Shown in pieces: positions 1 to 4,652 of a stretch of DNA of 4,652 nucleotides; positions within the stretch are counted from its first letter, which is position 1, and each line of letters opens with the position of its first letter. The stretch lies in IMG/VR virus record IMGVR_UViG_3300029885_000167. One strand, 5' to 3'. The stretch is from a virus (Duplodnaviria > Heunggongvirae > Uroviricota > Caudoviricetes). Below the pieces are notes generated by a model. That model saw only the letters and a list, made by a program, of their open reading frames with translations. It ran no database searches and had not been told where the DNA came from. The position numbers were made by a program, and so were the translations under genes.

Positions 1-23
1 GAAAAACGAGTATTTTTAGTCAT
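1..23 (-). CDS. IS3-family transposase OrfA, N-terminal 7-8 codons only (3' end outside window)
   Basis: ATG at 21-23 (minus strand) preceded by AAGAGG; translation MTKNTRF(S) runs off the window edge. Matches the remembered start of IS629/IS1203 OrfA. Confidence 0.5.
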
Positions 24-77
24 CCTGTTTACCTCTTTCTCAGGAAGTTTAGTCTCCAGGATTCCCGGGGCGGTTCA
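1..77 (-). mobile_element. Terminal 77 bp of an IS3-family insertion sequence (IS629/IS1203/IS3411-like), partial; the rest lies beyond the window start
   Basis: Minus-strand sequence from position 77 downward reads TGAACCGCCCCGGGAATCCTGGAGACTAAACTTCCTGAGAAAGAGGTAAACAGG ATG ACT AAA AAT ACT CGT TTT TC. It begins with the TG(A) typical of IS3-family ends, has an AAGAGG Shine-Dalgarno 7 nt upstream of an ATG, and the ORF opens MTKNTRFS, which matches my recollection of the IS629-group OrfA N-terminus. Only about 8 codons are visible, so the family assignment is from memory of the end sequence, not a search. Confidence 0.55.
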
Positions 78-161
78 GTCTTCATCCTCCTCCCAGTCAA
101 GAGATGACAGGAAGGATTTAAACTCTCTGTTACCAGGAAATTTCAAAGTTAAATCTTTCAT
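75..161 (-). pseudogene. 28-codon ORF (MKDLTLKFPGNREFKSFLSSLDWEEDED*) translationally coupled to the tail fibre gene; probably the 5' remnant of a gene cut by the IS insertion
   Basis: Its ATG (159-161) overlaps the stf stop TGA (158-160) in an ATGA arrangement. The reading frame runs for 28 codons and its TGA stop (75-77) is exactly the first three bases of the putative IS end. I do not recognise the peptide. Confidence 0.4.
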
Positions 162-2179
162 ACTGCCTCCTTGATTTGCCTGTCATTTAATTCTTTAAAC
201 CAGACTCTGAAATTTCTGATGTGTCCAAACAAATGACGCGTTCCTGCTGCGGTCTGCCCACCAAACCGGTACGATGTTGCTGTAACTCCAAATATTTTAC
301 CATTAAGGTTTGTTGTATAATTACCATTGCATATTGCATTTACTGATAAATCAGATTTAGCTCTCACACCCACAATGAACCTTTCTCCATCTGAGGCAAT
401 TTGTGGCTGAACCATTCCTACGTTGGCGCTTATCTTTCCTGTTGCAACAAACCCCAGCGATAAATAATTATCATCAATACTGTGCCCTCCAACATCAAAT
501 ATCCTTGGCGCAACATTGGGCGGTGTACTCCAGTTCCTGCTTACTTCGCACAATACCGTAAAAGGCCGTGTTGACAGGTTATTCTGCGATGGGATAGTAA
601 CTACATCACTTGCGCGTGTTGTTGGCATTGTAGTTACAATAAATGACGATGCCGTATTGCCCAGTTCAATTTGCGGCGTCGTCATGGTTAATGTTGAGTC
701 ATCATAGAATGGCTCATTACTTATTTTATTTGTCATATAAAAAGCACAGTTAACGGTATCAATGTCCGTATTAGCTGTATAAGTGGCCTCATAGTAGGTC
801 CACTCGCCCTGTTGTTCAGCTTTGGCTGTTATAAGGGATGTATTACCGCTTACTGTTGCGATCCGGGTATCCAGATCAAGATAAGAGTCAGCAGAGAAGG
901 TATCTGTTCCACCAATAATAACTGAAACTCTTAACCTGCATCGTGCTTTAGCGCCTTTAACCCGGCACGAAAAAGTGAAACATTCACCACTTGCCAGCGG
1001 GAATCTGTCTGCTGCAACCACACCATGCACAGTATAGCCACCTGTTGTTCCCACTATACTTTCCGTGGGTGTCACCGTGGCATAATTGAACCCCTGTTTA
1101 TCAGTGCCAAATGTTTTATTCAGTGCGGAATGAACAGTCCATGAGTCTGGTTTATTTGAGTTCCTCAGATAATTTGTCCTCTGTCCTTCAATCAATAAGC
1201 CATCGCGCTCAAATCGCGGTTCGTCAACTTCAGCAAGCTTGAGTTGGCCGGACTTATTAATATACGTTGCTGTTGAAGCACGTTTAAACTTAACAATCTT
1301 GTCGCCTGGCATTGTTATTTCATCGTCACCAATAACTATCTTTTTATAAGATGGCGAAAAACCCGTAATCATATCCAGTGAATCGTTAAACGGTATCCAC
1401 ACATCAGGCAGCGGCGGCACTATATTCGCACAGGGCTCTGCAGTCACTTCCGCTGCGGCTTCTGCGCGGTCTGCCGCCTTTTCAGCTCGTGTCGCTGCCG
1501 ACAGAGCCTCATCCTTTTTCTGCCCGGCCTTTGTTGCGTCTGCTGCGGCCTCCCGCGCTTTTGTGGTGGCGACTCCGGCATTTTCAGCGGCTGACTCTGC
1601 ATTACGGCGGGAAGCCTCTTCACTGTCTGCGGAGGCTTCTTCTGACGCACGGGCATTTGTCTCTGAACGTTCTGCCGCTGTTGCTGCGTTTTGTGCGGCT
1701 GTTTTTGAAGAAGCTGCCGCTTTCGCGCTGTTACCTGCATTCGTCTCTGATGTTTTCGCCGCGTTCCTGGACGATGCCGCTGCTGTTTCTGATTTCTTTG
1801 CTGCCGCTGCGCTCTGAGAGGCGGCTTCAGCGTTGCGTGCCGCCTCTTCCACCATCTTTTCAAAACGATACAGTGCCTCCGGACAAACATCATCTTCTGT
1901 TGCAGCGCCCAGAAAATCATTCAATGTCCCCGGCTTAGAATCCTCATACACGGTGATGGTCCCGGCATGTGAAGGCGGAAAACCTTCAACCAGCAGGGCG
2001 ACGCTGTACTGGCCATACTCAACATCCATGCTGTAACGTCCGGCTTCATCCGGATTTTCTGAGGCCACCGTGTTCACCACAACTGTGGTGCTGTTACGTT
2101 TTGCTTTGAGCTGAATGGTGCAGTTCTGTATCGGTTTTCCTGCACCGTCTTTCAGCACACCTGAAATCTGTACTGCCAT
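158..2179 (-). CDS. stf: Side tail fibre protein, Stf family (673 aa): conserved N-terminal anchor domain, Ala/Ser/Thr-rich repeat shaft, divergent C-terminal putative receptor-binding domain
   Basis: Complete ORF with stop TGA at 158-160. The N-terminal ~125 aa (MAVQISGVLKDGAGKPIQNCTIQLKAKRNSTTVVVNTVASENPDEAGRYSMDVEYGQYSVALLVEGFPPSHAGTITVYEDSKPGTLNDFL...) is near-identical to the N-terminus of lambda Stf and E. coli K-12 StfR as I recall them. Start set at ATG 2177-2179, which has GGAG 5 nt upstream; the GTG at 2183-2185 used by the ORF track overlaps that Shine-Dalgarno and gives an MNM extension absent from homologues. Confidence 0.9.
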   Translation of the reverse strand: MAVQISGVLKDGAGKPIQNCTIQLKAKRNSTTVVVNTVASENPDEAGRYSMDVEYGQYSVALLVEGFPPSHAGTITVYEDSKPGTLNDFLGAATEDDVCPEALYRFEKMVEEAARNAEAASQSAAAAKKSETAAASSRNAAKTSETNAGNSAKAAASSKTAAQNAATAAERSETNARASEEASADSEEASRRNAESAAENAGVATTKAREAAADATKAGQKKDEALSAATRAEKAADRAEAAAEVTAEPCANIVPPLPDVWIPFNDSLDMITGFSPSYKKIVIGDDEITMPGDKIVKFKRASTATYINKSGQLKLAEVDEPRFERDGLLIEGQRTNYLRNSNKPDSWTVHSALNKTFGTDKQGFNYATVTPTESIVGTTGGYTVHGVVAADRFPLASGECFTFSCRVKGAKARCRLRVSVIIGGTDTFSADSYLDLDTRIATVSGNTSLITAKAEQQGEWTYYEATYTANTDIDTVNCAFYMTNKISNEPFYDDSTLTMTTPQIELGNTASSFIVTTMPTTRASDVVTIPSQNNLSTRPFTVLCEVSRNWSTPPNVAPRIFDVGGHSIDDNYLSLGFVATGKISANVGMVQPQIASDGERFIVGVRAKSDLSVNAICNGNYTTNLNGKIFGVTATSYRFGGQTAAGTRHLFGHIRNFRVWFKELNDRQIKEAV
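1439..1852 (-). repeat. Low-complexity imperfect tandem repeat region encoding the Ala/Ser/Thr/Glu-rich fibre shaft (stf residues ~110-247)
   Basis: Translation shows reiterated SETNA / AAxS / AAE-like units (…AAKKSETAAASSRNAAKTSETNAGNSAKAAASSKTAAQNAATAAERSETNARASEEASADSEEAS…). The DNA is GC-rich with repeated gctgc/gccgc units and produces long shadow ORFs on both strands (1444-1920 -, 1489-1938 +, 1563-1817 +). Confidence 0.6.
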
Positions 2180-2184
2180 ATTCA

Positions 2185-2188
2185 CTCC
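2185..2188 (-). promoter_or_regulatory. Shine-Dalgarno (GGAG) for stf
   Basis: Minus strand reads GTGGAGTGAATATGGCA: GGAG, a 5-nt spacer, then the stf ATG. Confidence 0.5.
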
Positions 2189-2190
2189 AC

Positions 2191-2218
2191 AAATAAAAAA
2201 GGCACCATTTCTGGTGCC
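2191..2218 (-). terminator. Rho-independent terminator-like hairpin between J and stf
   Basis: Minus strand reads GGCACCA-GAAA-TGGTGCC, a perfect 7-bp GC-rich stem with a GNRA-type tetraloop, followed directly by TTTTTTATTT. It sits 19 nt after the J stop codon and ends 12 nt before the stf ATG. Confidence 0.6.
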
Positions 2219-2237
2219 CGAATTTGGGTTTTAAAAT

Positions 2238-4652
2238 TCAACTGATACTGATGCCGGCTGTTGATTTCTTCATCACGACAACAAGAAGGTCGCTGATACT
2301 GGTCGTTGGCGTCCAGTTATTTGCACCATATGAAGAAACATTGAAAGTCAGGGTGACATGGCCGTGTCCGGCAGGCATATCAATGACTGATGAAAATACC
2401 CTGCTGACATCCGTCGCGGGTTGCTGAAAGATTTCCTGTCCGTTCTTCAGCACCTGCAGCTTACAGGTTGAATACCAGTATGACTGTTGGTTGTTGCTGT
2501 TGAAGTTTTCATGCTTACCACCGCGAAACAGAACGGGGGGGACGACTATCTGACGGTCAAAAGCCTGGTCATCGTACACAGTGACCGTTATTGTACCGCT
2601 GGCATAACTGCCATTTCTCGGAAAGGCTTTTCCCACCGTTTTGACAATATCACCTTCAATCTGGTTAGCTGACAGTTTTCCCAGAATCCGACAGTTCTGG
2701 TTAATCGTGACATTATTGAGCGTCCCGGAGTTCGCATTCACGTTACCGCTGATATCCGCATTTCTCGCAGAAAGTCGACCATCAGGTGTCAGTGAAAACG
2801 TTGGGGGATTGCCACCGCTGGTAATGGTGGGAGCCGTCAGATATTTCAGGAACACTTCGTTCATGAATATCTGATCGCCCTGCCCAACAAACATCGGCTT
2901 TGTATTGCCATTCGCAGGATTAATCATCGCAATCCTGTCCGCCGCCAGCAGCACCTGACTCTGCATGCCGTCAGGGGTGTTCTCAATACCGGCACCAATA
3001 CCCGCGATATAAAGGCGTCCGTCCTGCATCTGCTGCAGCTTCACAGCCCACATGCTGTTCAGGTTATTATTTGTATCAACCTGAACCTTCTGTATCTGCT
3101 GAATTGCCGCACTCTGGTCTTCCAGTTTCTTATTGACGGTCTGCGTGATTTCATTGCTGACATCCGTAATGGACGTCCTGATTTCAGCCAGGTCAGGCGC
3201 AAGCTGACCGTTATCAATCTGCGTCCACAGCTCCTGAGCCAGATGGCTTTTCCCTATCTCGCCTTTGAAAAAATCCAGATAGCCGGATGCATCATCACTC
3301 GGCTGGCCAACAGCCTCCACAAATGCCGATTTGCCAACGGTGTTCACACTGCGGATGTAAAAATAATAATCATGGCCCGGTTTGATATTGATACTGGCAG
3401 CTATCCAGTACAGCGCCGTGCCAAGATAGCGGGCTGTGGTTTCAACCTGCCTGATATCCGCAATCCGCTTTTCCGAGAACCAGAACTCAAACTGTACCGT
3501 CGGATCATAAACGGCAAGATGGGGCGTGGCGGTTATCTGAAAATACCCCGGTGTCAGCTCAATCTGCGACGGCGCTGCCGGTGCGGCAATCCGGAACGAT
3601 ACCGATGCCGGATCGCCCTGCTGCCCCCACGCATTTACCGCCCGGACTGTCAGCCTGTAGTTCCCCAGCGCCAGTTGCCTGAAGCGGTATGTGGTTTCCG
3701 TCGTCCGGGCCATGCTGACCAGCCGCTCACTGCCGTCGTCCGCTGCCACGGTAAGGCGAAGCAGGAAGCTCACGCCCTTCACCACCTTCGGCGTGTCCCA
3801 TCGCGCCAGCACCTGATATTCCCCGCTGTCTGTGGTGACTTCGGCGGTCAGGTGCTGCACCGCTGGCGGCGTGACACCATTCACCGTGCCGCTCTGGTCG
3901 CCGTCAAAGTGCGCCCCGTTATCCACGATGGCTTCTTTTTCCGGTACATGCTGCACGGCGGTGATGGCATACGTACCGTCATCGTTCTCCCGGATACTCA
4001 CACAGCGGAACAGGCGCTGGCGCAGCGTCGGCAGCTTCAGCCCCCATACGCTGTATTCAGCAACACCGTCAGGAACACGGCTCACTTTTACCTTCACGCC
4101 GTCGGTGACGGACTGAACCTCCACGCTGACCGGATTGCCACTTCCGTCAACCAGGCTTATCAGCGTGGTACCGGAGGATGGCAGCGTGATTTCACGGTCG
4201 AGCGTCAGCGTCCGGGTCTGGCTGTTCACCGCCAGCACACGACCACCGGTGCTGATACCGGCATAGTCATCATCACAGATTTCAATAACATCGCCCGGTA
4301 CATGGCGAAGCCCTTCTGCGCCGACGCTGAAATCCACGGTCTGCGTTTCCAGCAGTTCCGTTTTAATCAGCCACAGCCCGGCGCGGTGTGCCTGCCCCCG
4401 ACTGGTACAGCCAAAGGCATCCATCTTCGTGACATTACGACCGTAACGGGCAATGGCCTGCGTATCCTCCACGAGCTCTGTCGCCGTCTCCCAGCCGTTA
4501 TCCGGGTCAATCCAGTTCACCTCAACGGCATTATGGCGGTCCTTCAGGGCGCTGAAGCTGTAGCGGAACGGCGCGCCATCATCCGGCATCACCACATTAC
4601 TGCGGTTATAGGTCCACACCTTATCTGATGGTCGGTCCTGCACGAACGTCAG
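2238..4652 (-). CDS. J: Host specificity protein J (tail tip / central tail fibre), C-terminal ~804 codons; N-terminal portion lies beyond the window end
   Basis: The frame is open to the window edge. Translation from the edge reads [50 protein letters not shown]…, near-identical to lambda gpJ from about residue 330 as I recall it; the track's initial M is really an internal GTG (Val). Stop TGA at 2238-2240. The C-terminal ~340 aa are much more diverged from lambda J than the preceding ~460 aa. Confidence 0.95.

Follow-up and report, generated by a model that had tools for sequence, protein, structure and literature searches.

The hairpin between J and stf in a lom-less lambdoid phage is probably a conserved terminator of the J gene

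The spacer separating the host specificity gene J from the side tail fibre gene stf contains a stem-loop followed by a T-tract, and it is probable that this structure is a canonical intrinsic (Rho-independent) terminator, 'tJ', which is located at the 3' end of J, is shared by J-bearing lambdoid phages and prophages irrespective of whether lom or stf comes next, and is read through by RNA polymerase carrying the antiterminator Q. The DNA analysed, referred to here as the window, is a 4,652-nt stretch from IMG/VR record IMGVR_UViG_3300029885_000167. The evidence comprises the anatomy and stability of the hairpin, its position, a conservation that is backed by covariation, its synteny with Q and the commonness of the lom-less layout. 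A terminator is already annotated at this site in phage 21, and the structure is conserved, ordinary and part of a very common lom-less arrangement. Regarding it as the standard J terminator, and not as a new regulator, is of value mainly for annotation; in these E. coli prophages, which are very common, stf would form the distal part of a Q-dependent late transcript.

The coordinates of the features within the window are given in Table 1. J, the spacer hairpin and stf all lie on the minus strand, which had been left unstated in an earlier note on this DNA. That note described J and stf as adjacent, without lom and separated by 58 nt, and this was confirmed: the spacer extends from 2237 to 2180, directly between the J stop codon (TGA, 2240-2238) and the stf start, and no ORF was present within these 58 nt that could represent a lom moron. 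The J frame (4652 to 2241) encodes the C-terminal 804 residues of the protein and continues off the edge of the window; the Pfam domains Ig_J, Ig_J_second, Phage_Tail_Tip and Ig_GpJ_C were identified in its product. Residues 1-131 of the stf product matched the phage_tail_N profile (PF08400) from end to end (profile positions 1-131, E 2.8e-67), and homologues in phage 21 and PhiR47_2 are labelled side tail fiber.

Table 1. Features of the 4,652-nt window, listed in the direction of transcription of J and stf.
Feature	Position	Strand	Basis or comment
3' part of J (tail tip / central fibre, host specificity)	2238..4652	minus	Translation; Pfam; gpJ annotation in a 100%-identical E. coli prophage
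AACCC box between J stop and hairpin	2226..2230	minus	Invariant columns in the alignment of 23 distinct relatives
Predicted terminator stem-loop, (G)GGCACCA GAAA TGGTGCC(U)	2200..2219	minus	Terminator scan, fold, covariation, phage 21 annotation
T-tract TTTTTTATTT / RNA UUUUUUAUUU (U6AU3)	2191..2200	minus	G2219 can pair with the first T; the lom-cassette indel has its left edge here
stf Shine-Dalgarno sequence, GGAG	2185..2188	minus	Sequence; RBS annotated at the matching place in phage 21
stf, side tail fibre gene, 673 aa, single unbroken frame	158..2179	minus	ATG 2179-2177, stop 160-158
First 28 codons of a 92-aa ORF overlapping the stf stop (ATGA)	78..161	minus	Mapped from 1H12 gp24
Left end of an IS629/IS3-family insertion sequence (TGAACCGCCCCGGG...), orfA ATG 23-21	1..77	minus	Sequence; not a phage element

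Read on the minus strand, the junction has the sequence TGA ATTTTAAAACCCAAATTC G GGCACCA GAAA TGGTGCC TTTTTTATTT GT GGAG TGAAT ATG. The stem begins 18 nt past the J stop codon, on the strand of J and stf, and is formed by GGCACCA (2218-2212) and TGGTGCC (2207-2201) around a GNRA-type GAAA loop (2211-2208). All seven base pairs are Watson-Crick pairs, five of them G-C, and pairing of G2219 with U2200 can add an eighth. The 7-bp stem, GAAA loop and T-tract that had been described earlier were therefore present as stated, as was the abutment of the hairpin on the stf ribosome binding site, the GGAG motif being situated 2 nt past the T-tract and 5 nt ahead of the ATG. The statement that the structure fills most of the spacer was too generous, since hairpin and T-tract together occupy about half of it.

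When folded in isolation the hairpin yielded a free energy of -14.2 kcal/mol, compared with a mean of -4.2 for 200 dinucleotide shuffles (z = -5.24), none of which was as stable. The folding check suggested in the earlier note thus returned a stable structure. The terminator scan detected the J-stf hairpin on the minus strand only. Over the window as a whole, seven terminator-like sites were found against 4.7 ± 1.8 in shuffled sequences, a difference that is not significant, and since this number was not above shuffle expectation it was not used as evidence; the case for a terminator is built on the stability, position, conservation and covariation of the single hairpin. This hairpin combines a G+C-rich stem within the range of about 5-14 bp and a loop within that of 3-8 nt with a U-rich tract directly 3' of the stem; the site is on the coding strand just past the end of a gene, and its stem is kept by compensatory changes.

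Temperate coliphages of the genus Jouyvirus (1H12 and the Lambda_ev series) matched 4575 nt of the window at 100% identity. Prophages in several E. coli chromosomes matched all of it, likewise at 100%, and the classical phage 21 was 95% identical across 79% of the window. In the genome of phage 21 (OL657228.1) a 'terminator' has been curated at 19195-19222, between J, the gene for the central tail fibre, and that for the side tail fibre, directly ahead of the stf RBS. This site is homologous to that of the window, with the same spacer, loop, T-tract and RBS (GGGCGCCAGAAATGGCGCCTTTTTTATTTGTGGAGTGAATATG) in the same lom-less J-stf layout, and differs from it by a single compensated pair in the stem (G-C in phage 21, A-U in the window) and a few substitutions upstream; the C-terminal part of stf also differs between the two (79% coverage, 95% identity). 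Within the structural-gene block of OL657228, terminators are annotated only between J and stf and between I and J. A terminator scan of the late region of 1H12 (L127) located a hairpin with a T-tract in four gaps, namely after D (6100-6124), after E (7163-7189), between I and J (15480-15507) and between J and stf (19023-19051). J is hence bracketed on both sides by terminator-like hairpins, as was also observed at locus L001 (1889-1913).

The regions upstream of stf and downstream of J were inspected in 120 IMG/VR loci with a conserved stf start. A lom gene was situated between J and stf in about nine in ten of these loci and was lacking in about one in ten. Both classes exhibited the same succession after the J stop codon: ..TTATAACCC.., 4-8 variable bases, GGGC(G/A)(C/T)C, a loop, G(G/A)(C/T)GCC and TTTTTTATT. 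Where lom is present, the J hairpin and T-tract are followed by GCAGAAAAGCGAGAGGTAATT and the ATG of lom, the hairpin abutting the lom RBS; lom itself is followed by another hairpin, unrelated to the first (AGCCCGCCGGTTCAGGCGGGC TTTTTT), and by GTGGGGTGAAT and the ATG of stf, giving a J-stf spacer of 688-756 nt. Where lom is lacking, TTTTTTATT passes straight into TGTGGAGTGAAT and the ATG of stf. The two states differ by one cassette, comprising the lom RBS, lom and its own terminator, that sits between two T-tracts, and the edges of the indel coincide exactly with these tracts (TTTTTTATT/GCAG...GGGCTTTTT/TGTGG, where the slashes denote the edges).

Because lom-carrying relatives have the same hairpin directly after J, it is to be assigned to the 3' end of J, not to the J/stf junction, and the idea of a special arrangement peculiar to the lom-less state was not upheld. 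Nor is the absence of lom unusual, given that the lom-less junction was detected in 1145 of 5426 complete E. coli genomes by a 201-nt spanning query that had to match in one piece at a coverage of 80% or better. The comparison of synteny proposed in the earlier note therefore revealed a hairpin after J that is common to relatives with and without lom, and a lom-less layout that is itself common.

In lambda (NC_001416), unlike in the window, lom lies between J and stf, as had been stated. A terminator-like hairpin is nevertheless found directly after lambda J (about 18920-18945, -9.7 kcal/mol), although its stem differs from that of the window (CGTCCGGGAACGGGCG then TTTTATTAT) and there is no AACCC box. 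A second lambda hairpin (about 19612-19640, -17.7 kcal/mol; AGCCCGCCGGAACCGGTGGGC TTTTTT) abuts the stf RBS, and its T-tract and RBS are homologous to those of the window (TTTTTTGTGGGGTGAATATG). A terminator-like hairpin touching the stf RBS is accordingly the norm even in lambda, and the hairpin of the window is probably the ordinary J terminator. The hairpins of lambda all fall within its Q-dependent late transcript.

Like the moron cassettes described in lambdoid phages (Juhala et al. 2000; PMC3594210), lom is a dispensable insert ending in its own factor-independent terminator; the window corresponds to the 'empty site', and its hairpin is not part of the moron. The distance from the J T-tract to the lom ATG in lom-carrying loci, for example L015, L017 and L004, was approximately 22 nt, which leaves no room there for a lom promoter. 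In these relatives lom is a promoter-less cassette between two terminator T-tracts, a poor fit to the textbook moron with a promoter of its own and at odds with the reported expression of lom in lysogens. In the Rac prophage of E. coli K-12 (L125, 5010-5050) the lom-stfR hairpin AGCCCGCCGGTTCAGGCGGGCTTTTTTGTGGGGTGAATATG has been kept directly ahead of stfR, J and the J terminator having been deleted and lomR split by IS5. The Term-seq supplements of PMC7815308 contained no stfR/lomR entry for this related hairpin.

To follow the hairpin through its relatives, 23 distinct J-downstream sequences were aligned. The T-tract TTTTTTATT was invariant in this alignment, and 113 J ends in the 120+ loci possess a hairpin with TTTTTTATT at the matching place. 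Considering the helix as one of eight pairs, 96.7% of the alignment cells were paired, compared with 37-59% when the 3' partner was slid by 1-3 columns. Double-sided changes were present in three of the eight pairs, with G-C replaced by A-U or the reverse in eight sequences, C-G/U-A in four and A-U/U-A in two, while the loops varied freely (GAAA, GGAA, UCAGGA, CGAAGC and AUUUCU). The covariation score was reached by none of 500 shuffles, a count that does not amount to a probability because the sequences are related. Judged from these sequences, the pattern of compensated stem pairs is that which a structural RNA element would be expected to give.

The non-coding stretch from the J stop codon to the T-tract exhibited a mean pairwise identity of 85% (median 88%) across 76 distinct loci, whereas the last 450 nt of J were less conserved in the same loci, at 63-72%. 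Variants of the hairpin are shuffled relative both to the type of J C-terminus and to the downstream content, which indicates recombination on both sides of the element. That this non-coding joint is more strongly conserved than the adjoining end of J bears on the swapping of host-range modules and on the engineering of host range through J and stf.

On the coding strand of the spacer, its vicinity and the 3' end of J, no sigma-70-like site was identified by a promoter scan, and a gap of 11 nt separates the T-tract from the stf ATG; the earlier view that there is no room for an independent promoter was therefore sustained. In the 100%-identical prophage of strain NMBU-W13E19, a Q antiterminator (PF06530, E 2.2e-51) is encoded upstream, outside the stretch covered by the window. 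One strand of this prophage carries Q, the genes for holin, lysozyme and spanin, and all those for the head and tail as far as J and stf; the other carries only a few small accessory genes (lipocalin, iss and ylcI). The late genes of phage 1H12 have the same layout, Q included. With Q upstream and the late lysis and structural genes on a single strand, the organisation is that of a Q-dependent late operon. In lambda, the late transcript's 27 genes need Q, and the cluster following J consists of lom-stf-tfa (PMC10695390). Q21 forms a nozzle on the RNA exit channel of RNA polymerase that blocks the formation of terminator hairpins and confers processivity over tens of thousands of nucleotides (10.1101/651190).

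The earlier note had proposed that stf is expressed by read-through under Q. With Q upstream on the same strand, in the identical prophage as in 1H12, this is the natural inference, and by analogy with the Q proteins already characterised, read-through of the J hairpin would be the best-supported mechanism. During lytic growth, polymerase initiating at pR' and carrying Q would be unable to form the hairpin in its exit channel and would continue into stf, so that stf and the small ORFs behind it would be made as the distal end of a single late transcript. Polymerase without Q, such as that originating from stray promoters within the structural block (roughly 20 kb) while the prophage is repressed, should stop at the hairpin; it is at this point that the predicted J terminator would actually terminate. 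In read-through or processed RNA the hairpin may additionally form a 3' barrier protecting the J mRNA. A role as mRNA stabiliser or prophage insulator is possible and compatible with all observations.

The J hairpin may be likened to tR' in the antitermination systems of Q21 and Q-lambda, where an intrinsic terminator in the path of transcription from pR' is bypassed by Q-loaded polymerase. The two differ in that tR' is promoter-proximal and acts as an on/off switch for the late genes, whereas the J hairpin occurs about 19 kb along the structural-gene block (at 19,023 in 1H12, whose genome begins at cos), is even further from pR' and is not known to act as a switch.

One feature of the spacer is given no account by a simple terminator model, namely the invariant AACCC box, the neighbours of which vary within the alignment. 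In the fold of lom-less phages, AACCC can pair around the hairpin with part of the Shine-Dalgarno region of stf. Such pairing does not explain the conservation of the box, since lom-carrying phages keep AACCC without that partner. An extended helix, CCCAAAU/AUUUGUGG, which was present in the minimum free energy structure and would hide part of the stf Shine-Dalgarno sequence, was rejected on the same grounds as not general. Furthermore, a terminator that is always bypassed during lytic growth needs another reason for its strong conservation, and insulation in the prophage, RNA stability or a role in recombination may provide one. A broader proposal would combine these: the whole segment from the J stop codon through AACCC and the hairpin to TTTTTTATT would serve as a module-boundary element, insulating the repressed prophage and at the same time offering a fixed joint for the exchange of J receptor-binding ends and of promoter-less cassettes such as lom, with AACCC as a recognition or processing signal. 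In this full form the proposal is unlikely.

The earlier note had also suggested that the hairpin is an attenuator tuning the J:Stf ratio. A fixed fraction of polymerases would then stop even in the presence of Q, so that there would be less stf mRNA per J mRNA. In favour of this, the terminator is predicted to be strong and is placed exactly between the two genes, and the spacer shows no further control element. However, in most relatives the hairpin precedes lom and not stf, and is therefore not matched to stf. In addition, Q-loaded polymerase has been described as termination-deficient and processive (10.1101/651190), and this counts against any substantial attenuation during lytic growth. 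No competing structure stood out either, the fold of an 81-nt segment giving a z-score of only -1.89. This fold was dominated by the terminator, and no antiterminator structure, leader peptide or ligand-binding fold was found in it of the kind that would characterise an attenuator or riboswitch-like leader. A CCC/GGG alternative pairing was considered as an antiterminator; comprising 3 bp only, it was judged too weak. A scan of the whole window on both strands against Rfam by E-value yielded no hits, and thus no known sRNA or riboregulator. Virions of lambda contain about 3 copies of gpJ and up to 4 side fibres, which are probably trimers. More Stf than J, or at the least as much, would be needed in virions, the opposite of the outcome of attenuation. 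Differences in the expression of the late genes of lambda have reportedly been attributed to translation initiation. Support for tuning of the J:Stf ratio was consequently not obtained, and we consider it improbable.

Less probable still is the view that the segment running from the J stop codon through AACCC, hairpin and T-tract persists mainly as a patch of homology, a linker at a module boundary at which recombination swaps the receptor-binding ends of J and gains or loses the lom cassette, termination being secondary. The conservation of this 49-nt non-coding segment above that of the flanking J coding sequence accords with such a view, as do the shuffling of hairpin variants against J C-terminal types and downstream content, the bounding of the lom-cassette indel by two T-tracts and the occurrence of such hairpins on both sides of J. 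Compensatory changes together with free variation of the loop, on the other hand, indicate selection that acts on the structure of RNA or DNA and not on sequence identity alone, and 49 nt is short for an exchange of the RecA type. A linker function would in any case be compatible with the preferred explanation, a J terminator read through under Q, and would not exclude it.

It is very improbable that the hairpin serves the opposite strand by stopping antisense transcripts that enter J from the stf or accessory-gene side, such as ones from the convergent sitABCD operon. Being symmetric, the hairpin would form in antisense RNA too, and in these phages the sit genes point towards the late operon. 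On the plus strand, however, the stem is followed by CGAATTTGGGTTTT, with no immediate U-run, the terminator scan reported the site on the minus strand only, and the convergent genes end more than 2 kb away. An antisense promoter based on TAAAAT, the complement of bases that follow the J stop codon, was rejected by eye, having no -35 element. The sitABCD genes encode an iron/manganese ABC transporter and are carried as cargo by lom-less Jouyvirus phages and prophages (about 8170-10600 in loci L001 and L002; 10481-12652 in L126), where the operon is convergent with the late operon and is situated just beyond stf and two small ORFs.

At the downstream end of the window, the matches to phages end at position 78. 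The left end of the IS629/IS3-family element (TGAACCGCCCCGGGAATCC...) sits after codon 28 of the 92-aa ORF and cuts this ORF off, whereas it is intact in the free phages 1H12 and phage 21; an IS3 / IS629 family transposase is annotated in the 100%-identical genomes. In one locus (L126, 6474-8495) the intact 673-aa stf frame has been annotated by RefSeq/PGAP as two pieces, an N-terminal pseudogene marked 'partial' and a separate CDS named 'phage head spike fiber domain'. As the window contains one uninterrupted stf ORF, this split is probably an annotation artefact.
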